From: a virus
Lineage: Duplodnaviria > Caudoviricetes
IMG/VR virus record: IMGVR_UViG_3300027566_000003
Reading direction: 5' to 3' (one strand)
Length of the DNA stretch: 64,000 nt
Shown: positions 6,527 through 18,297 of the stretch, one piece after another
Numbering within the stretch: position 1 is the first letter of the stretch
How the letters are laid out: each line of letters starts with the position of its first letter
The notes under the pieces: model-generated
Told to the model about the DNA's origin: nothing
Database searches by the model: none
What the model saw: the letters and a program-made list of their open reading frames with translations, nothing else
Program-made: the position numbers and the translations under genes

Positions 6527-8814
6527 TTAACAGCGATGTACAATTATTTTGGGCAAATAATGAGAATGGTGATATTGCAATTATATTTGATATGGTAGAA
6601 GAAGATAGGAATAAGAAATACACATGTCCAGTTTGCGGATCAGATGTCAAACCTGTTGCTTTAGAAGGAAAAACAAAAGATGGTAAGGTAGCGCAAGTAT
6701 CTGCTCATTTCTCTCATTATGATGCTAGTAAATGTAGTAACGAGTCAGCGATCCACTACTGGTTCAAGAATAAAATATTACTCAATGGAGATAGTTTTAT
6801 TATTAAGACAGATGTTGAGAATAAATATAAATGTAAAGAAGTGTTGATTGAACAATTTTATAGAACTGAGTTTGGTATTTATAGACCTGATATTACCATC
6901 ATTACTGAGTGTGGTAAAAGTATTTACTTTGAAATGAATTATACTAACAAGAAGAAAGTAGAAGACTATATGGATAAGTGGTTAGAACTAGGCAATCCAG
7001 TGGTAGAAGTTGATATTAAGATGCTCATGGATGCAAGTTTTAACAAAAACACATACGAATTTAGAGCATTGTTTTATGAAGGTAAGTGTTTTAATACTAA
7101 GAAGAATGATTTGTATTATGATACTGTTGGACAATTTAAAGAAAGAATATGTAAAAACAATATTATTGACAATGAAATAAGGGAAAGAATTAAAAAACTT
7201 GATTGGTTTTGGTTGGAAACAATAAATTATAAAAGAGGAGAAACCAATATTGAGCAGTTGGTCGATTATATTGATTATGCTGAACATGATGAAAAGGATC
7301 TAATTTTCATGATATTATCTAAAAAGAGATGTGTCCCGATATATGAAGATTATATTAATTATAAGGTTGATTTGTTTGAGAAGTTAGCAATTGATTATTA
7401 TGGTAATTTTCAAAATGGTGTTTATGAGGAATATTTTATAATTGAAAAAATAAAAGAGGGGAAAAAGTATAAAAATATAAAATATAATACTATACAAATT
7501 AAAAACACATATTCTCCAGAATTAATTTTGATTTTTAATTTAATTAAATACACCAAAGAAGAATACTTAATTAAAATATATGATAATATTAATGTTATTA
7601 TTAAATTAATTCCACATTATGATAGATTTGATGAAATTTTATCTATACTGAAGGTGAAATATAATAGTGTGCCAAATTCAAAAGACCTAAAATTTTTTGC
7701 TTCGAAGAATGGAAGTTCATGTGAAATATCTTTGTATGCTAAGTCTAATTGGTATTATGACTATTATGATACTAAATATGCTTCAATTTATATTAATAAA
7801 AATAGTGTCAAGTATGAATATACAATTCATATCAATAAAGATAATAAGAAATATTTTGACAAAATAATTGATATGGATATATTAGATAAAAATAATGAAG
7901 TCAAAATGATTAAATTTATATCTGAAACTATTGATAAGGGGTTAGTGAGATATAATCAATATTTAATTAAAAAAGAAAATATAGAGAAGGAAAAACAATT
8001 TGAATTACTAAAAAAAGAAGAGCGAGAAAAAGAGGAGCAAGAGAAAATATTATTAGAAATTAAACAAGAAAAAATTACATTCAATAATATTTTGCTTAAA
8101 ATTATTCAAATATTTGAAGATAATAAAGATATTATTGTCGAATATAAATATAATTATTTTGTTGATAAACTTTTTGATAATTTATTATATTTTAAGGATC
8201 GTAATAATAAAGAATTTATTATTTACAGTGATTATTACTTACATAAAATTAACTGTGATAAGAGATCATATTATAGTCCTTATTTCAAACAGTGTCTTTA
8301 TAATAGTAAATGTGGAATCATTCAAATTAGTAGTAAAATTGATATAAGTGATGAAATTTATATAATGAATTTAATGAATTCCTATAAAATATCAAATAAA
8401 ATAGATATGCTGAATTATAAATTCCCAATTTATTTCAAGAACCCTAAAATTAATCTATCATTTAGAGATATGGGGTATAGTACAAAGAACTTGCCAAGAT
8501 ATAATTTTTTAAATGCAACACAGCAAATAAATAATATTCTTAAAGAAATATCATATATTAAATTCAAATTTTTAAACGACAAAAAAGATAGTAATATATA
8601 TTACTTGGAAACCACAGATGAAAATATTAATAATAAAATATACAAAGCACTTTATCCAATGATTTATTTGGCAGAGAAAAATCAAAATGATGTATTGAAT
8701 ATTAAACTCAATATAGATTTTACTTATGACGTAATAAAACAACCTTGGTTAATTAAAGAATTTATAGAAGCTCTAGAAAAACTAGGTATACATAACGTAC
8801 ATAACATAATTTAA
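6523..8814 (+). CDS. CoiA-like zinc-finger / PD-(D/E)xK nuclease-domain protein
   Basis: YTCPVC...HFSH...C..ESAIH (CoiA-N-like); YRPDITI...IYFEMNYTNKK (PD-(D/E)xK-like); ATGA-type overlap with the upstream gene. Confidence 0.65.
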   Translation: MINSDVQLFWANNENGDIAIIFDMVEEDRNKKYTCPVCGSDVKPVALEGKTKDGKVAQVSAHFSHYDASKCSNESAIHYWFKNKILLNGDSFIIKTDVENKYKCKEVLIEQFYRTEFGIYRPDITIITECGKSIYFEMNYTNKKKVEDYMDKWLELGNPVVEVDIKMLMDASFNKNTYEFRALFYEGKCFNTKKNDLYYDTVGQFKERICKNNIIDNEIRERIKKLDWFWLETINYKRGETNIEQLVDYIDYAEHDEKDLIFMILSKKRCVPIYEDYINYKVDLFEKLAIDYYGNFQNGVYEEYFIIEKIKEGKKYKNIKYNTIQIKNTYSPELILIFNLIKYTKEEYLIKIYDNINVIIKLIPHYDRFDEILSILKVKYNSVPNSKDLKFFASKNGSSCEISLYAKSNWYYDYYDTKYASIYINKNSVKYEYTIHINKDNKKYFDKIIDMDILDKNNEVKMIKFISETIDKGLVRYNQYLIKKENIEKEKQFELLKKEEREKEEQEKILLEIKQEKITFNNILLKIIQIFEDNKDIIVEYKYNYFVDKLFDNLLYFKDRNNKEFIIYSDYYLHKINCDKRSYYSPYFKQCLYNSKCGIIQISSKIDISDEIYIMNLMNSYKISNKIDMLNYKFPIYFKNPKINLSFRDMGYSTKNLPRYNFLNATQQINNILKEISYIKFKFLNDKKDSNIYYLETTDENINNKIYKALYPMIYLAEKNQNDVLNIKLNIDFTYDVIKQPWLIKEFIEALEKLGIHNVHNII

Positions 8815-8825
8815 GGAGGAGTAAC

Positions 8826-11624
8826 TTGATTAAGCAACAACAATTCTATGTTTTTCGTATTAAATCTTCTAGATTAAAAGAGTATAAGTATAATATAACA
8901 CTAACTCCAGATCAAGCAAGGAAAAACAAAGAACTAATATCTATTGGAGATAGTGAATTAATTAGACAAATCAGGAATCACATAGGGGTTGATACTGAAA
9001 AACTTCAAGAGTTAAATAAAATTAAGAAAATAATTAAATTTCAAAAATCATCAGACGCAAACATCAAAGCATTGGAAAATATTCAAAAACAAATTGATGA
9101 TATATTATTTGTTCCAGAAGTAATTGTAACAAATATAAATTCAAATAGTCAATATAAGAACATGTTTGCTGATAGTATAACTGTAAATAATAAGACTTTT
9201 AGACGTTTCATGTGTGGTAGTGGACATTCTCGTAACAGTAAAGTTATTTTTGTAGAAGAAGAAACTATTAATAGAATTAAATCAAAATTGGAAAATGGAT
9301 ATGATAATGAAAAAAACTTCAGTGCGAATAAGTTTAATGCTTATTTCGCACTCTACAGTAGTAGTACATATAAAGTAAGAAATTTAAAGTTCTGTGTTGT
9401 AAAAGACTTAGAGGTAAATATTAAAAGAAAAGTAGATTTTGTATTTCAGGATGAAGAAAAAACTTGGGTGGAAGAATTAGATAATCATTCAATAGACTTA
9501 AAACCTCATGATGGCGAAGGTATTTTAACAATACGTGGTGCAAAACTTTGGGCAGAGGATTTAGAAATTAATGATTATATTCCAGGATTTTTCGGAATCA
9601 GAAATTCGTTTATTAAAGGGATGCTAATTTCCTACCCAGTGGATGAGTACACTAATGAAATTTCTGGAACATGCAAATTTATTGATGCATGGGGTGCTGA
9701 AAGAGATTCTAGGGAATACGATATATTCCTGACCACTAGCCAACTAAAACTATGGAAGAATTATAAGTCACTTGAGGAATTTACTAAAAATTGCGAGGAT
9801 AATAATTTGTCTTGGGGAGTATGTCATGTAGCTCCCCAACGCAACAATAATTATTGCTTGACAAATTATCAGTATTTACAGACCTTAGATATGGAAGATA
9901 ATGATATTGAAGAACTTTGCAAATTTAATGTAGATTGGTTTAAAGATATTTTAGGTGCAGATGCTATTAAAACTTCTTTATATTTATTAGGCAAAGGTGT
10001 AGAAAAAATAGAAAACATAAATGACATTCATAATCCTATTGTAAAAGCAATCTTACTAAATAATACTCTAGCAAAAGACACATATATACAAACTAAAATA
10101 ATGAATAGTATAAGAAAAAAGATTCAACACTCTTATGCAGGAAAAGTTCTTATTCAAGGAAATTACCAAACTATGTTAGCAGACCCGTTTAGTTTATGCC
10201 AAAATATATTTGGTGAAAAACCGGAAGATTGTACAGGATTGCTTAATGAAGGAGAACATTATTCAGCATATTGGAATAATAAGAATGTTACAAGTGTTGA
10301 TGCGTGTAGAAGCCCTCTTACTCATTACTCAGAGCATAATATACTAAAACTTCAAAATCATAATGTGGTTAATCATTGGTATAGATATCAAACAACTGGT
10401 ATAATCTATCCAACACTAGGATTAGACACAATTCGTCATGCAGATTCAGATTTCGACCTAGATTTGGTATTTACTTCCAGTAATCCAGTATTCTTAAGAT
10501 GTTCTCACAAAGATACATTACCTATTACATACGAAAAGAAAACTGCTCCCATAGATAAACTTACAGAAGAAGCAATGTTTCAAGCCGATTTATTAAGTTT
10601 TAGTAATGATATAGGAACTATTACTAATTATTCTACAGATATGTATACTATGTTGGAACAATTTCATAAAGGAGGTAAATCACATAATACCATATTAGAG
10701 AGATTGAAAATAACTCGTATGCTCCAAGGGAATGCAATAGATAAATCAAAAGGTGTTCAGGTACAAGATTTCCCTAAAGATTGGATTACTTATCAAACAA
10801 TTAGATACAAGGATGAATGTGATGAAGATGGGAAAGTAATTAAAGGTAAAGAAAAGGATACACCAGAATCAATTAAAGAGAAAAAATTTCTAAATAAATT
10901 AGTTATTCATAGAAAACCATATTTTCAGGGATGGATATACCCTAAATATAGAAAGAAGTATTTAGAATATATAGAAAAAGCTAATTTATATTGTAAAGTA
11001 ATTTTTAAAATGTCTTTAGAACAACTTAAAGAAAAAAGAAGAAAAACACCAGAAGAAAATGATTATATGAGATTTCATTATCACAACCTACCACTTAGTA
11101 TATCTCCAAGTGTAATGAACAAATTGTGTTGGCATATGGAATATGCTTGTAAGGATATAAAAACAGAAGTAAGTATAGATAATAATGCTGATATTGTTGA
11201 AATATTAAAAGATAAAGATATAGAAAAAAATGATGTTACATTTTCAAAAGTTCTGAAGTTGTATAAAGATTTTTGTGGAAAGAAAAGAATTCATGAGAAA
11301 ACAAAGCAAAGATCATATACGAAAGATAAATATGATGAAGAATCATATGATGATTTACAATTATTTTATAAGCAAATACGCATTGAGGCATATAAAATAT
11401 GTTCAAACACCTCAGAATTAATAAATTATGCTACAGAAATAACTTATGAATTGCATCCAAAAGATAAGAAAGATTTCTTATGGGATGTATTTGGAAAAGA
11501 TGTTTTAGTAAATATAGAAAAAAATAAACAAGATAAAGTTTTTATTCCTATTTTAGATAACAATGGTACAATCGAATATTTAGGAGATAAATTCAAATTA
11601 CAGGAGGTTATATATGATATTTAA
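8826..11624 (+). CDS. yonO: single-subunit (YonO-type, RdRP-like two-barrel) DNA-dependent RNA polymerase
   Basis: 932 aa; DGEG, IRNSFIKGML, CRSP, metal-binding loop HADSDFDLD, IGTITN, QGNAIDKSK; position upstream of HU/YonK-like/terminase as in SPbeta. Confidence 0.88.
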   Translation: MIKQQQFYVFRIKSSRLKEYKYNITLTPDQARKNKELISIGDSELIRQIRNHIGVDTEKLQELNKIKKIIKFQKSSDANIKALENIQKQIDDILFVPEVIVTNINSNSQYKNMFADSITVNNKTFRRFMCGSGHSRNSKVIFVEEETINRIKSKLENGYDNEKNFSANKFNAYFALYSSSTYKVRNLKFCVVKDLEVNIKRKVDFVFQDEEKTWVEELDNHSIDLKPHDGEGILTIRGAKLWAEDLEINDYIPGFFGIRNSFIKGMLISYPVDEYTNEISGTCKFIDAWGAERDSREYDIFLTTSQLKLWKNYKSLEEFTKNCEDNNLSWGVCHVAPQRNNNYCLTNYQYLQTLDMEDNDIEELCKFNVDWFKDILGADAIKTSLYLLGKGVEKIENINDIHNPIVKAILLNNTLAKDTYIQTKIMNSIRKKIQHSYAGKVLIQGNYQTMLADPFSLCQNIFGEKPEDCTGLLNEGEHYSAYWNNKNVTSVDACRSPLTHYSEHNILKLQNHNVVNHWYRYQTTGIIYPTLGLDTIRHADSDFDLDLVFTSSNPVFLRCSHKDTLPITYEKKTAPIDKLTEEAMFQADLLSFSNDIGTITNYSTDMYTMLEQFHKGGKSHNTILERLKITRMLQGNAIDKSKGVQVQDFPKDWITYQTIRYKDECDEDGKVIKGKEKDTPESIKEKKFLNKLVIHRKPYFQGWIYPKYRKKYLEYIEKANLYCKVIFKMSLEQLKEKRRKTPEENDYMRFHYHNLPLSISPSVMNKLCWHMEYACKDIKTEVSIDNNADIVEILKDKDIEKNDVTFSKVLKLYKDFCGKKRIHEKTKQRSYTKDKYDEESYDDLQLFYKQIRIEAYKICSNTSELINYATEITYELHPKDKKDFLWDVFGKDVLVNIEKNKQDKVFIPILDNNGTIEYLGDKFKLQEVIYDI

Positions 11625-12881: not shown

Positions 12882-14132
12882 TTGCCCGATGAACCATACA
12901 CAATCAATCAACAATATATAGATTCGTGTGTATTAATGGATCACCCAAAAGAAGTTTTTGAAGAGTTTGATCATATCTTCCTTAGTGGTTATGTTGCAGG
13001 AGAGATGGACAATTTAAGGAAGAATGGAAAAACAGAAGAAACAAAATTTCAGGCCAGAAGAGCGTGTAGATATATAGATGCTAATGAGGACAAGATTACA
13101 TATCTTATTAGTGAGACTGATTACGATCTTCCAGAAAACTTTGATAAAGATAATATGGATAATAAAATAATCTCTATTTTATATAAAATGTGGAAAAATG
13201 ATAATAAATTTATTGCTTATAGTAATGACATATTGTTTAGGCAAAAATGTAAGGATTTAGGTATTCCTTATAGTAAATTTGAACCTACGGAATCTAATGG
13301 TGAAAAATACACAGGATATAAGACCATCCAAATGACAGAAAATGAACTTGCTAATTGGTATCAATCAGAAGCAAAATCAAATCTTTGGAATATGAATATC
13401 AATGAGTATTTATTAGTTCAGGTTAATAATGAAATAGTTGATAAATATCGTTGGACATCAAATGGGTTTAAAAGTATTGTAAAAAAAGATTTTAAAAGTA
13501 TGATGTTTGGAAATTTAAAACCAAAAGATATATACCAAGAGTTATGTATTGATAGTTTACATAATAATCAATTTACTGCTATTACAGGTAAACCAGGAAG
13601 TGGTAAATCACTTAGTAGTCTTATGTATATTATGTGGGCATTACAAAACCAAAAATATGATTCCTGCGTAATAATGTATAATCCCACAAAAGTTCGTGGT
13701 GCAGTTGATATGGGTTATTACAGTGGCAACTCCATAGAAAAGGGAATGCAACAGTTTATCGGCAATATGCTTATTACTAAATTTGGTGATAAAAGTATTG
13801 TGAATAATTTAATTACACAAGACAAGATTAGGTTGATTCCTATGGCAGATAGTAGAGGTATGGAGATAACTGATAATCAAATTCTTTATATAACTGAAGC
13901 TCAAAATACTACGCCTGATTTAATGAAACTTGCATTATCAAGATGTAGTAAAGATGCGAAAATCATTATAGAAGGTGATCCATATCAACAGGTAGATAAA
14001 ATAGATTATGTTGGAAGGAATAATGGTCTTCTACGAGCTATTGAAGTTTTCAAAAATGAAGATATGTTCGGATGTGTACATTTACCTAATATTTGGAGAA
14101 GTAGAATGGCAGATATATCTGATAAGATGTAA
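12882..14132 (+). CDS. phoH: PIN-PhoH (PhoH2-like) ATPase
   Basis: N-terminal YIDSCVL...MDNKII...SNDILFRQKC (PIN-like); GKPGSGKS, ITEAQN, IIIEGDPYQQVD, WRSRMA. Confidence 0.88.
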   Translation: MPDEPYTINQQYIDSCVLMDHPKEVFEEFDHIFLSGYVAGEMDNLRKNGKTEETKFQARRACRYIDANEDKITYLISETDYDLPENFDKDNMDNKIISILYKMWKNDNKFIAYSNDILFRQKCKDLGIPYSKFEPTESNGEKYTGYKTIQMTENELANWYQSEAKSNLWNMNINEYLLVQVNNEIVDKYRWTSNGFKSIVKKDFKSMMFGNLKPKDIYQELCIDSLHNNQFTAITGKPGSGKSLSSLMYIMWALQNQKYDSCVIMYNPTKVRGAVDMGYYSGNSIEKGMQQFIGNMLITKFGDKSIVNNLITQDKIRLIPMADSRGMEITDNQILYITEAQNTTPDLMKLALSRCSKDAKIIIEGDPYQQVDKIDYVGRNNGLLRAIEVFKNEDMFGCVHLPNIWRSRMADISDKM

Positions 14133-14384: not shown

Positions 14385-14663
14385 ATGAATAAAGAACAAC
14401 TCGTAGCGGTAGTAGCCCAAAAAATTAATACAACGAAAAAAGCATCTGACGAAGCAGTAACGGCAGTATTACAAGCAATTGAAGAAGCACTTGTAAATAA
14501 AGAAAAGGTATCTCTAACTGGATTCGGAACATTTTCTGTAAAAGATCGCGCAGAACGCAATGGTCGGAATCCGGCTACAAAAGAACCTATGGTAATTCCT
14601 GCAACTGTTGCTCCGCACTGGAAGGCTGGTAAAGTCCTTAGTGATAAGGTTAAAGGGAAATAA
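14385..14663 (+). CDS. hup: HU-family histone-like DNA-binding protein (YonN-like)
   Basis: MNKEQLV...GFGTFSVKDRAERNGRNPATKE signature. Confidence 0.95.
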   Translation: MNKEQLVAVVAQKINTTKKASDEAVTAVLQAIEEALVNKEKVSLTGFGTFSVKDRAERNGRNPATKEPMVIPATVAPHWKAGKVLSDKVKGK

Positions 14664-14676
14664 AGTAATTTACAGT

Positions 14677-14751
14677 GCTGGATTAGCTCAGTGGTAGAGC
14701 AGTTGCCTTGTAAGCATCATGTCATCCGTTCAAATAGGATATCCAGCTCCA
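14677..14751 (+). tRNA. tRNA-Thr(UGU)
   Basis: Acceptor GCTGGAT/ATCCAGC, D-arm GCTC-AGTGGTA-GAGC, anticodon loop CT-TGT-AA, TTCAAAT T-loop, encoded CCA. Confidence 0.9.
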
Positions 14752-14815
14752 TATAAATTAGCATAAGGCAAACTAATAATAAAAAATTAAAAATAAAAGG
14801 TGGAATAAATAAACA

Positions 14816-15031
14816 ATGGCAAAATCAAAACTTACAGAAACTAAGAAAATTACTCATAAACTAGCAACTGAAGGTGAATTAACTATTGAAAATAATATAG
14901 CAGTAATTAACATTCCCGACGAAGGTGTTAAAAATCTAATTGAGTTACTGAAAAATTTCTCAGGGAAATATGTTAAATTTTCTTTTACAGAAGAAGAAAT
15001 TGAAGATGTAGTTGGTGAGGATAATGGATAA
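14816..15031 (+). CDS. YonK-like small protein
   Basis: 71 aa, ...ELLKNFSGKYVKFSFTEE resembles SPbeta YonK from memory; syntenic after HU. Confidence 0.6.
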   Translation: MAKSKLTETKKITHKLATEGELTIENNIAVINIPDEGVKNLIELLKNFSGKYVKFSFTEEEIEDVVGEDNG

Positions 15032-15058
15032 GAAAAATCTGAATAATTAATCATACCT

Positions 15059-15193
15059 AACCACAATAAGGTTTGGAACAGGCATCCAACGCTCCAACAT
15101 ATGTTTTATATGAAGGATTAGAGATGTAGGAACTATATCAATAAGGATATAGAGTTTATAAAATAAACTGAGCGTCGCCCTACTATTGTGGTT
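15059..15193 (+). ncRNA. candidate multi-branched structured RNA
   Basis: AACCACAATA/TATTGTGGTT closing stem, ACGCTC/GAGCGT inner stem, three internal hairpins; no + strand ORF. Confidence 0.45.
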
Positions 15194-15203
15194 TGATTCG
15201 TTT

Positions 15204-15258
15204 TTAGAGAGTTAGGATAAAGTTATCATAGTTAGTAATTATTCTCCTAACTCTCTAA
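15204..15258. repeat. perfect 14-bp inverted repeat
   Basis: TTAGAGAGTTAGGA (15204-15217) / TCCTAACTCTCTAA (15245-15258). Confidence 0.85.
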
Positions 15259-15306
15259 CCTACTAATAATTTATCAAAATTTAAAATTAAAGGGGACAAA
15301 CAAAAC

Positions 15307-15948
15307 ATGACAACTGAAACAATGACAATCCATAAAGCATTATCTGAACTCAAAGTAATTGGTGCTAAAATTGATAAAACTATTTCCCAAGGAGTATATT
15401 GTAAAGCAAATAAACATTCCAACGACAAAATCAATGGTGTATCAGTAGAAGAATTCAAGACGCAAATTCAAGCTAGTTGGAACAAAGCCAATGACTTAAT
15501 CAGTCGCAGGAATGCCATTAAAAGAGCAACTGTTTTATCTAATGCTACTACAAAAGTAAAAATTGGCGATAATGAAATGACGGTAGCAGAAGCAATTGAG
15601 ATGAAAAATAGTGGAATGGCATATAAGAAAACTTTAATGAACACAATGAACCAACATTATGTACATTCTATTCAAATTATAGATAAAGAAAATGGAGAAA
15701 CATTAAATCAAAAAGCTGAAAATTATGTAATTGGATTATTTGGTTCAAAAGAAGGTAAGACAAATACTGATGAACTTGAAAAAGTTAGGAAAGAATTTAT
15801 TCTTAATAATTCATTTGAATTTGTAGATCCAATTAAAGTTAAGGAAAAAATTGATGAATTAGAGAAAGAAATTTCTGATTTTGAATCTGAGATCGATTCC
15901 ACGCTGAGCACATCAAATGCTCTGACTGTAATAGAAATTGAATATTAA
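15307..15948 (+). CDS. coiled-coil phage protein (DIP1984-like N-terminus)
   Basis: MTIHKALSELKVI...IKRATVLSNATTKV...MTVAEAI...IDSTLSTSNALTVIEI; mostly helical heptads. Confidence 0.75.
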   Translation: MTTETMTIHKALSELKVIGAKIDKTISQGVYCKANKHSNDKINGVSVEEFKTQIQASWNKANDLISRRNAIKRATVLSNATTKVKIGDNEMTVAEAIEMKNSGMAYKKTLMNTMNQHYVHSIQIIDKENGETLNQKAENYVIGLFGSKEGKTNTDELEKVRKEFILNNSFEFVDPIKVKEKIDELEKEISDFESEIDSTLSTSNALTVIEIEY

Positions 15949-15965
15949 TCCATAATCCTTAAGAA

Positions 15966-16323
15966 ATAACTACTTACTGTTTTCCGAAAACTTTAAACCA
16001 TAATTGACAAGTCTTTTATGTACTTAGACTGGTTTAATAAATATAAAGAAAGTACATATTATTTACATCTTTAACAGGATGTTTACTTTGAAAATTATAT
16101 GATTTAATTAAAATCAAATGATACAAAAGCAAAACAACAAAAATTCTGTAAAGATTAAAGTTTAAATCTAAACGCTTAAAGTTAAAAATTCAAAGTTTAT
16201 TATAAGTGTAAAGTTTAAGGTTTAAATAGTAAATAATAAAGATTGATTAAATCCCTGATAAAACGGTTTGGGATGATTATGCTTGCCCAAAAGTATCCGC
16301 AGGGCTGGAAAGCAGTAAGTTAT
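15966..16323 (+). ncRNA. candidate ~360-nt structured RNA with an internal ~7-nt periodic array
   Basis: ACTTACTGTTTTCC (15972-15985) pairs with GGAAAGCAGTAAGT (16307-16320); nested CCCTG/CAGGG and TTTGGG/CCCAAA; TAAAG(T/A)T-like units at ~16149-16244. Confidence 0.6.
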
Positions 16324-16724
16324 TATATAAATTTTGATTTATTAAAAGGAATTACGCCGACTGAATTAATTAAGACTTAATAAGATGTTTGTGAATACAC
16401 ATCTTACACATGAGAATAAAAGTTGTGTTTGACTACGGTTAAAAATACAATCTCTCATGGATACATACTTGGGGTTTAATCAAGAGACTCTATCTCATAT
16501 TTCGCCTTTATGGTGGTTATAAAAGTCGTTTGTGCTTTAGGCACGTTATATGGAGGCGTATGTCTCCCATCTAATATGGAAGGAGTTTCATAAACTGCCT
16601 TCAATAACAGAGTATGGAGTGTAAAGAAATTGTGTGACACAGTTAACTTTTCATTCTGTACTCTTATTTAATTTATTATACCCTCTCCCCTATTCTCTTA
16701 TAAGGAGATGAAATATAATAAAAG

Positions 16725-16907
16725 ATGAAGACAAATAAAATAGTAGAACAGCCTATTGAAAATAAATTAAACAAATACAATAATTATGATATTGAAAATG
16801 CTGATACTAAATGTCCGGTGTGTGGTAAATTACGTTTCTGGCTTAAATTTTATTGTAACGAAACAATTCTAAGATGTGAAGATTGTGGACATTTTGAGAA
16901 AATTTAA
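16725..16907 (+). CDS. small zinc-ribbon protein
   Basis: CPVCG...CEDCG; RBS AAGGAG. Confidence 0.6.
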   Translation: MKTNKIVEQPIENKLNKYNNYDIENADTKCPVCGKLRFWLKFYCNETILRCEDCGHFEKI

Positions 16908-16974
16908 TCCCCTATTGGTCGATTAGGGGATATTTTAATTTTGAAAATAAAATAACTTCTTTAGGAGAATTTAT

Positions 16975-18297
16975 TTGGAATATATACGAAAAGAAAATGA
17001 GTCATTTTTACAATTTGCTGATAGACTATTATCCAATAGAAAAGAATATGATTTAGACAAAGTTGAAGTTTATGAAATATTATACGGAGAACAAGTATCA
17101 GCAGATCATGCAAGAAAATGTCTAACTAGTTTAGAAAAAACAATTGAACAAGATAAAGTATGCAAAGTTGATATGCAATCTGATGAAAAATGTCTAGAAG
17201 ATAATTTGACTAAAAAATATAAATCAACCACAGAAATTAATAAAGATGGAACATATTCTAGTGATAAATTATTAGTTATGTCTGAAGAAGAATCTAAAAA
17301 TGTTAATTATCTTTTAAAATCTCATGGTTTTGACAACTTATCATGGGAATTAGTATCAGCAAGAAACAATATTTGGAATGTTTATAGTAAACAAGATGGT
17401 GTTAAAACACTTTATTCAAGCAAAATAGTAACTAAACCTAAAGTAAATCAATTTAATATTAATTGGATTAAACAGGCATTAGAAGATTTAGACCTAGAAA
17501 GTCCAGTAGTAGATCAAAAGCCTTATCATGTTAAAGGAAAAACTTTAGAAATTAATTTGGCAGATGTTCATATTGATAAACTTTGCTGTATTGATGAAAC
17601 AAGAAATAGTTATTCTACAGAAATTGGTATACAAAGATTATGGAATGTAATTAATGATATTATTGAAAAAGTAAATTTTTATAATATCAAGAAAATAATA
17701 TTTCCATTTGGTCAAGATGTGGCGAATATTGATAATATTTTCAATTCCACAACAAAAAATACGCCACAAGACACAGACGTAAAATATGATGTAATGTATA
17801 AATTGTTACTCAAAAATATAATTCAAATTATACATAAGCTTACTGATATTGCTCCAGTTCATGTAATATATGTCGGAGGAAATCATGATAAAGTAACATC
17901 GTTTACAATGACTGAAGCAATGTATTGGCATTTTTTGAATAATGATAATGTAGAAGTTGATTCTGTATTTAATAATCGCAAATACATAATGATTGGGAAA
18001 AACCTTCTGGGATTAGCACACGGGGCAGATGAACGCAAAAACATAGTTTATTGTATGCAAAATGATGTTCCTGAATTATGGGGGAAAGCGAAATATAGAG
18101 AATTTCATTTATCTCATTTCCATAAAGAAAAAATGACAGATGAACAAAATGGCATTGTTTTTAGATGGATAAGTGCAATTTGTGGCAATGACGCTTGGAC
18201 TTATAATAGTGGATATGTTGGTGCTCAAAAGAAAGCTCAATCTTTTATTTGGGATGACGATAAGGGTTTAGAAATGATTATTAATAGTTATGTTTAA
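16975..18297 (+). CDS. calcineurin-like metallophosphoesterase with N-terminal extension (YonJ-like)
   Basis: LADVHID, GQDVAN, GGNHD, LAHG, SHFH motifs; SPbeta synteny. Confidence 0.85.
   Translation: MEYIRKENESFLQFADRLLSNRKEYDLDKVEVYEILYGEQVSADHARKCLTSLEKTIEQDKVCKVDMQSDEKCLEDNLTKKYKSTTEINKDGTYSSDKLLVMSEEESKNVNYLLKSHGFDNLSWELVSARNNIWNVYSKQDGVKTLYSSKIVTKPKVNQFNINWIKQALEDLDLESPVVDQKPYHVKGKTLEINLADVHIDKLCCIDETRNSYSTEIGIQRLWNVINDIIEKVNFYNIKKIIFPFGQDVANIDNIFNSTTKNTPQDTDVKYDVMYKLLLKNIIQIIHKLTDIAPVHVIYVGGNHDKVTSFTMTEAMYWHFLNNDNVEVDSVFNNRKYIMIGKNLLGLAHGADERKNIVYCMQNDVPELWGKAKYREFHLSHFHKEKMTDEQNGIVFRWISAICGNDAWTYNSGYVGAQKKAQSFIWDDDKGLEMIINSYV

Follow-up and report, generated by a model that had tools for sequence, protein, structure and literature searches.

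RAGATH-27 (RF03100) was described as an orphan motif of 86 nucleotides (nt), the first 46 positions of which are drawn unpaired (Weinberg et al. 2017, PMC5737381). Two further families, GOLLD and ROOL (RF01998 and RF03087), form cages made of RNA only, with no known partner, and GOLLD can hold tRNAs in its linker (bioRxiv 10.1101/2024.12.08.627333). On the hut terminator RNA of Bacillus subtilis, HutP recognizes XAG motifs which, being separated by 4-nt spacers, recur with a period of 7 in two blocks (PMC2425495), and RAGATH-18, found with the TnpB of IS607, turned out to partner, as an RNA, with the product of the gene that directly precedes it (PMC11061315). The locus considered here lies in a 64,000-nt stretch of DNA (hereafter, the window) of the 122-kb virus record IMGVR_UViG_3300027566_000003 (Duplodnaviria; Caudoviricetes; 28% G+C), recovered from a groundwater metagenome. 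It comprises a gene for a 213-amino-acid (aa) protein and, directly behind it on the same strand, an RNA that starts with a RAGATH-27-like segment and carries a track of 7-nt units (heptamers).

Scanning the window against Rfam at gathering thresholds returned tRNA only, and the cut-off of the RAGATH-27 model (76.1 bits) was not reached. In a permissive scan, 15973-16058 aligned with RAGATH-27 from end to end (positions 1-86 of 86) at 59.0 bits (E 3.6e-7). True members of RAGATH-27 (L146, L234, L262, L195 and L248; 88-97 bits) align with the window over the whole RNA, and the relatives from human-gut phages, which exceed the cut-off, share the full architecture of the window RNA. The model covers a quarter of this RNA and misses the closing stem, the heptamer array, the 3' arm and the partner gene; it leaves the copies of phages T5, PK16 and phiCD211 undetected, and Rfam scans gave no match at the RNA in phiCD211, My1 and PVP-SE1 (full scan) or in T5 and PK16 (E <= 0.01). 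The preliminary description of this DNA had supposed the RNA to lie outside the characterized Rfam families. This is touched only formally by the resemblance of the first 86 nt to RAGATH-27, an orphan motif to which no function has been assigned. No description of the RNA came out of literature searches on RAGATH-27, on T5.085, on non-coding RNAs of T5 and on new families of phage RNA.

Positions 15966-16326 of the window are a structured RNA. Its closing stem, P1, pairs 15972-15985 with 16307-16320 over 14 base pairs, one of them G-U, exactly as first described, and extends to a 20-nt version (15966-15985/16307-16326) at 85%; the distance from the stop codon, initially given as 18 nt, is 23 nt for the core and 17 nt for the extended stem. 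A 366-nt stretch folds at -82.3 kcal/mol, compared with -53.9 +/- 4.1 kcal/mol in shuffled sequences (z -6.9). A single stem in a single window would be near chance; the proof of the structure is comparative. Among close relatives (69-96% protein identity), conservation starts just past the stop codon of the protein gene and stops exactly at the 3' strand of P1, beyond which the genomes diverge. All 84 distinct relatives examined retain P1, which takes more than 20 different sequences among them. A degenerate pattern built from the RAGATH-27 motif retrieved 49 viral loci, which are true RAGATH-27 members (88-97 bits). In every one of them the 14 nt preceding CGAAAAC have a 14/14 pairing partner located 320-430 nt further downstream, and the paired sequences vary from group to group; common to these loci are the heptamer array, a 3' arm of the form AAAUCC...hairpin...GGCUG and a variable middle. 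Scans of viral contigs with short patterns (14-mer, 17-mer) gave mostly chance matches, specificity coming from the gapped patterns alone.

Covariation was measured on an alignment of 35 representatives. P1 was 92.7% paired, with 12 of its 14 pairs changed on both sides, and the outer helix of the 3' arm (CCCUG/CAGGG) was paired in 98.9% of cells, four of its five pairs showing compensatory changes; the GC-rich nested arm that had been noticed in the single sequence is present. The covariation score of 0.468 compares with 0.175 for shuffles (none of 500 as high) and 0.09-0.14 for controls in which the partner strand was slid, and RNAalifold recovered P1 and the 3' arm independently from the 35 sequences. 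Helix S1 of the pseudoknot was 81.8% paired, with three of five pairs compensatory, and helix S2 corresponds to the hairpin of the RAGATH-27 model. A naive pseudoknot scorer did no better than on mononucleotide shuffles; the pseudoknot therefore rests on the covariation of S1 and on the recurrence of the same topology, with different sequences, in the distant phages T5, My1, PVP-SE1 and Simmy50. On the + strand 92.7% of P1 cells are paired versus 78.0% on the - strand, 17% of cells being G-U, so that the structure is an RNA of the gene's strand and not a DNA element. Of the smaller hairpins proposed at the outset, ACATC/GATGT is present and competes with the longer helix P3, for which compensatory changes are seen in the relative L007, and TGATTT/AAATCA is present within the variable loop and is not conserved. 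In relatives, this loop holds other hairpins or a tRNA-like insert at the same place.

Gene and RNA go together in both directions of search. The gene ends just upstream of the RNA in 136 of 136 viral RNA matches, and the RNA is present behind 136 of 136 genes; it was located by nucleotide profile in loci fetched with the protein, down to 36% identity, and the reverse direction relied on loci fetched with the RNA pattern, by which alone about 45 of the 136 were selected. The spacing between the two is mostly 5-26 nt, one locus carrying a 0.9-kb insertion. An independent scan of bacterial contigs and metagenome-assembled genomes (MAGs) gave 26 loci (Clostridia, Bacteroidota, Gamma- and Alphaproteobacteria). 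Sequence downstream of the gene was available for 24 of these, and each has the RNA, in some cases as a compact version of 230-260 nt that retains all core elements. In about 170 loci, with protein identities reaching as low as about 30%, the two components were never found apart, the RNA measuring 230-480 nt, and the early expectation that homologs of the protein are followed by a closed stem and a heptamer array was borne out in every case examined. Named phages with the RNA are T5 (gene T5.085), Pectobacterium phage My1, Salmonella phage PVP-SE1, Clostridioides phage phiCD211, Pseudomonas phage phiPsa300, Vibrio phage Skimmer, Bacillus phage PK16 and Erwinia phage Simmy50. These eight span at least five host phyla or classes and show the same anatomy within an unannotated gap of 360-640 nt 3' of the gene; intrinsic terminators lie directly 3' of P1 in Skimmer, phiPsa300 and PK16. 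The pair is usually found within or beside tRNA arrays.

In the heptamer track, TRF reported a period of 7 and 11.6 copies at 16149-16226, and the lag-7 autocorrelation of the array was 0.60 (z 5.5 versus dinucleotide shuffles). The periodicity noted in the preliminary description is upheld; seven in-phase units, a break of 11 nt and five further units were counted here, or about 12 units in all. The position weight matrix (PWM) of the unit reads Y, A (0.96), A (0.89), A (0.76), G (0.71), N, U (0.79), at a spacing of 7. Lag-7 z scores of 4-7 were obtained for most of the 35 members, in most of which the array is about 105 nt long, with a median of 11 recognizable units (most 10-12) and a usual layout of seven units at 7-nt spacing, a break of 16-19 nt and five units. 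The track was at first said to be unable to self-pair, which is too strong for one sequence and agrees with the consensus fold of the 35 (RNAalifold), where the array is unpaired. A search of the window for other sites of a heptamer "regulon" found the best tandem matches concentrated in the RNA, with no clear second target.

Two to three similar units run into the Shine-Dalgarno (SD) sequence of the protein gene itself, where they form a candidate translational operator in the 5' untranslated region (UTR) (Table 1). A 13-nt core of this UTR is invariant in close relatives, and its invariant word, AAAATTTAAAATT, does not recur through the window in the manner of a promoter motif; tandem UTR units also occur in T5, PVP-SE1, My1 and MAGs of Clostridia. 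Scored with the PWM of the array, the UTRs of 29 lineages had a median of 9.7 bits, compared with 1.0 for 104 control UTRs, all SD-bearing and from the same loci (Mann-Whitney p 9e-10), and 1% of the controls reached the median of the targets. As the UTR heptamers match those of the array, whatever reads the track probably also reads the initiation region of this gene, and the simplest candidate for that reader is the gene product.

The 213-aa product belongs to phrog_1491, the family of T5.085, whose profile it matches over its full length (E 1.5e-54; protein residues 3-212, profile positions 2-210 of 211). A tblastn search with the protein reached 738 phage records, T5 included, and the family comprises 3,323 clusters at 50% identity; the best 150 of these clusters are all 203-234 aa long, and none is fused to another domain. 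The AlphaFold2 model (pLDDT 88) consists of long helices joined by a small sheet, which is formed by the nearly invariant N- and C-terminal strands. Pfam gave a sub-threshold match to DUF3479 only and NCBIfam nothing usable; a PDB profile search returned nothing below E 0.18, Foldseek against PDB and Swiss-Prot no match below 1e-3, and an Atlas search unnamed viral clusters only. The best VIA match, 3kdq_A (Z 10.3; root-mean-square deviation 10.2), is itself a protein of unknown function. For the oligomer put forward in the preliminary description, which is hypothetical, a prediction with three copies scored 0.51, the best control scoring 0.36. RefSeq records of T5, My1, PVP-SE1, phiCD211 and many other phages label the protein "tail fiber protein", in automatic annotations only; no fiber-protein fold stood out in the fold searches, and in T5, PVP-SE1, PK16 and phiCD211 the gene sits among early and tRNA genes, outside the tail modules. 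As far as this context shows, the label is an annotation artefact that was apparently propagated automatically.

Transcription of the tract, anticipated in the preliminary description, is weakly indicated for the T5 copy alone: sequencing runs containing the window sequence are groundwater DNA metagenomes only, with no RNA library among them. The T5 copy is present in RNA-sequencing and RNA-immunoprecipitation (RIP-seq) libraries of four studies, and in two of these the contigs over T5.085 and the RNA end at positions 7961 and 7979 in L320. Both positions are less than 10 nt or at most 10 nt away from 7971, where P1 is predicted to end on its 3' side, and an uncovered gap follows, which is a weak hint at a transcript. 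The RIP-seq libraries of T5 probably stem from work on another subject, DRT9, the sole T5 RIP-seq study found in our literature search.

These findings are read most economically as a protein-RNA system of its own. The best explanation, which we hold with as much doubt as confidence, is that 15273-16326 constitutes one expression unit of a widespread phage module combining a ribonucleoprotein with self-repression; that the protein and the RNA join in such a particle we would give roughly an even chance. In the proposed scheme, the protein would be co-transcribed with the RNA and would load cooperatively on the heptamer track to yield the ribonucleoprotein; once the track is full, surplus protein would bind the look-alike units of its own 5' UTR and shut off translation, a titration and feedback circuit with the logic of ribosomal-protein operons. 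The location of the module in tRNA islands and the uptake of tRNA-like inserts by its loop point to a possible role in translation, tRNA handling or counter-defence in early infection.

Several points weigh against this explanation. Contact between the protein and the RNA is hypothetical. The protein is mildly acidic (isoelectric point ~5.5), and family and fold searches revealed no recognizable RNA-binding domain or known fold. A/U-rich sequence is common before start codons, a concern that the control UTRs answer statistically only, and there is relatedness among the 29 lineages. In the window itself, the UTR units have AAAA instead of AAAG and score below 9 bits. Contigs from RNA libraries cannot show abundance, strand or true ends and may reflect DNA carry-over. 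Finally, GOLLD and ROOL, the closest analogs by context, assemble from RNA only.

This last point leads to the alternative that survives best, possible in our view and yet rather doubtful, in which the RNA would be the center of a machine comparable to GOLLD and ROOL and would work by itself or as a homo-oligomer, the protein being a helper, a chaperone or merely a linked gene, and the track binding a host factor (S1, Hfq-like, CSD proteins or an RNase) or tRNA anticodon loops. The setting is that expected of such RNAs, namely phages, tRNA islands and tRNAs within a variable linker: in the window a tRNA-Thr lies upstream, and in relatives tRNAs flank the RNA or lie inside it. The lack of an RNA-binding signature in the protein fits this alternative too, and pairing between U-rich loops and the AAA(G) core of the heptamers is conceivable. 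However, the strict 5-26-nt adjacency of gene and RNA in all lineages, amid mosaic tRNA regions, is hard to account for without functional dependence, the heptamers at the ribosome-binding site tie the track to control of this very gene, and no such partner gene is known for GOLLD or ROOL. The covariance models of the two families had no match in 15900-17000, either at the gathering threshold or at E <= 10.

The tRNA-like inserts of the gut-phage group deserve description in their own right. Here the variable loop contains a tRNA-like gene (in L013-L074; e.g., L017:3831-3905, L043:3826-3900 and L058:3802-3874), the body of which is conserved. Between close relatives the anticodon of the insert is erratic (Gly GCC, "Tyr" AUA, Phe GAA, Ser UGA, Leu UAA or unreadable), which, judged from these sequences, is unlike a decoding tRNA under selection. 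In the variable loop of Erwinia phage Simmy50 (L278:2255-2330), a T-arm-like segment is followed by an acceptor and D-arm-like segment, an arrangement that looks like a circularly permuted tRNA-like module; ARAGORN called no tRNA there.

Next comes an improbable alternative, that the RNA is a cis-acting 3' UTR element which stabilizes, terminates or processes the mRNA or the transcript of the tRNA operon and has no function in trans. Its constant place in the 3' UTR of the same gene, the terminators found 3' of the RNA in several phages and its location in tRNA operons that need processing would all be explained. Nevertheless, an RNA of 230-480 nt with a pseudoknot, an invariant junction and a track of conserved length across phyla goes far beyond known 3' stabilizers, and the variable loop accepts whole tRNA inserts while the core stays fixed. 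In the window itself, a scan of 14600-17100 for sigma-70 promoters and terminators gave sites not above chance and no terminator.

A narrower proposal, which we rate as quite improbable, sees a counter-defence or translation-takeover device in which the 12 evenly spaced YAAAG units, resembling Lys codons, and the protein form a multivalent decoy or docking track. Its targets would be U-rich anticodon loops such as that of tRNA-Lys, or host nucleases whose cleavage sites are AAA(G/A) or lie within anticodon loops. Early in infection, tRNAs or mRNAs of both phage and host would thereby be shielded, and the inserts with erratic anticodons might be bait of the same kind.

Type III toxin-antitoxin systems such as ToxIN place a repeat RNA next to a protein gene in settings of phage-host conflict, and the repeats of ToxIN-like systems, ~34-45 nt (~36 nt) long, lie upstream of the toxin gene. 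The analogy, drawn in the preliminary description, is that a repeat RNA neutralizes a toxic protein; a protein gene adjoining a repeat-bearing RNA in phages is indeed what we see, yet we consider such a pair very improbable here. The repeats are 7 nt long and sit within a unique scaffold of large size, the gene is followed by the RNA and not preceded by it with a terminator in between, and the module is present in lytic phages such as T5. The protein has a different fold, modeled as all-helical with small sheets, and matches no endoribonuclease family in Pfam, NCBIfam or PDB sequences, PADLOC having been outside this search. The analogy breaks down in the length of the repeats, the order of the genes and the fold of the protein, and was rejected.

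The weakest alternative, which we find hardly credible, is a DNA-level element (iterons of a replication origin, a site for packaging, or a miniature transposon bounded by inverted repeats), as AT-rich sequence, short direct repeats, terminal inverted repeats and the end of conservation exactly at the right arm might suggest, but G-U cells that are valid on the gene's strand only, covarying internal helices, a fixed place behind one gene, the absence of target duplications and of any further copy elsewhere in the genome, and a 7-nt period that mismatches the DNA helical repeat speak against it, and an origin or mobile DNA was rejected. Likewise rejected were chance and transfer-messenger RNA (tmRNA) or RNase P RNA, two closed RNAs comparable in size, for which no match was obtained at E <= 10, ARAGORN reporting the tRNA-Thr only.

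The features of the locus are collected in Table 1.

Table 1. Features of the protein-RNA locus and its upstream context, with positions in the window
Feature	Positions	Strand	Remarks
PIN-PhoH2 gene	12882-14132	+	First in the gene order around the locus
tRNA-Thr(UGU)	14677-14751	+	Upstream context; gut-phage relatives have this tRNA ahead of the gene as well
5' UTR; 2-3 units resembling the heptamers, continuing into the Shine-Dalgarno sequence (GGGGA, 15292-15296)	15273-15296	+	Candidate translational operator
Partner protein gene, 213 aa, phrog_1491 (T5.085 family)	15307-15948	+	Helical; near-invariant N- and C-terminal strands
P1 closing stem, 5' strand	15966-15985 (core 15972-15985)	+	Pairing, covariation and RNAalifold
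Stretch matching RAGATH-27	15973-16058	+	59 bits (cut-off 76.1)
Junction 3' of P1 (GAAAAC ... AAAC ...)	15986-16009	+	G and first A invariant in 35 relatives
Pseudoknot	16010-16057	+	S1 16010-16014/16026-16030; S2 16018-16025/16050-16057
P3 helix, 16067-16080/16143-16155	16067-16155	+	Encloses the variable loop, 16081-16142
Heptamer sub-array 1	16149-16197	+	7 units, Y-A-A-A-G-N-U
Heptamer sub-array 2	16209-16243	+	5 units
3' arm (CCCUG..CGG.UUUGGG/CCCAAA..CCG.CAGGG) and near-invariant GGCUG abutting P1	16253-16306	+	Covariation, RNAalifold
P1 closing stem, 3' strand	16307-16326	+	Conservation among relatives stops here

Every gene of the window is carried by the + strand. Around the locus, the order is PIN-PhoH2, tRNA-Thr(UGU), a small open reading frame (ORF), the 213-aa gene, a 1-kb interval lacking long ORFs, a zinc-ribbon ORF, an "exonuclease" (phrog_704) and a ClpP-like protease. 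The PIN-PhoH2 fusion, of an RNA helicase/nuclease type, lies beside the tRNA, two genes upstream, as a further RNA-handling gene of the island. The phrog_704 "exonuclease", which has no Pfam match, is found 3' of the RNA both in the window (16975-18297) and in Clostridioides phage phiCD211 (L271:3740-4939), making it a second conserved neighbor in the low-GC lineages. Further upstream, 8826-11624 encodes a 932-aa phrog_8308 protein. Between the small ORF and the 213-aa gene, a perfect inverted repeat of about 12 base pairs (15207-15258) was considered as part of the module and rejected: among the relatives compared, the hairpin is retained, with compensatory changes, only in the close relative L005 and is absent from L001, L006 and L007, and it probably serves a local purpose, in termination or processing. 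About 600 nt 3' of the RNA in the close relative L001 (L001:4622-4689), an int-alpA RNA (RF02996) matched above its gathering score; it has no counterpart in the window.

A structured RNA of ~350 nt with an obligate protein partner has thus remained unannotated in T5, which is among the oldest model phages, as well as in hundreds of phages employed in therapy and biocontrol (among them rV5-like, T5-like, Bacillus and Clostridioides phages). Through the present analysis RAGATH-27, so far an orphan in Rfam, becomes the 5' quarter of an RNA that is far larger, and a widespread "tail fiber" mis-annotation would be corrected. Should a periodic-track ribonucleoprotein with self-regulation prove true, it would represent a new type of viral RNA-protein assembly.

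Compared with the systems from which we set out, the arrangement of a protein gene followed directly by its structured RNA resembles that of TnpB and IscB with their omega/reRNAs, from which the locus differs in having no nuclease domain, guide segment or transposon ends. HutP and TRAP (on the trp leader) are protein oligomers that recognize a core of 3-4 nt recurring at fixed spacing along single-stranded RNA. The track recalls their targets in presenting a short core at fixed spacing on unpaired RNA, here AAAG with a period of 7 in two blocks. HutP and TRAP, in contrast, regulate host operons and have known folds, and Pfam and fold searches place the present protein in neither family; moreover, the HutP target has 3 + 3 units, compared with 12 units here, set in a dedicated scaffold RNA, on which binding is putative. 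Like GOLLD and ROOL, finally, this is a large phage RNA that resides in or beside tRNA islands and sometimes harbors tRNAs within a variable linker. Unlike them, it is smaller, displays a periodic single-stranded track and is accompanied by an obligate adjacent protein gene, and it thereby adds to GOLLD and ROOL a third class of large RNA in phage tRNA islands, one whose protein handle eases biochemistry.
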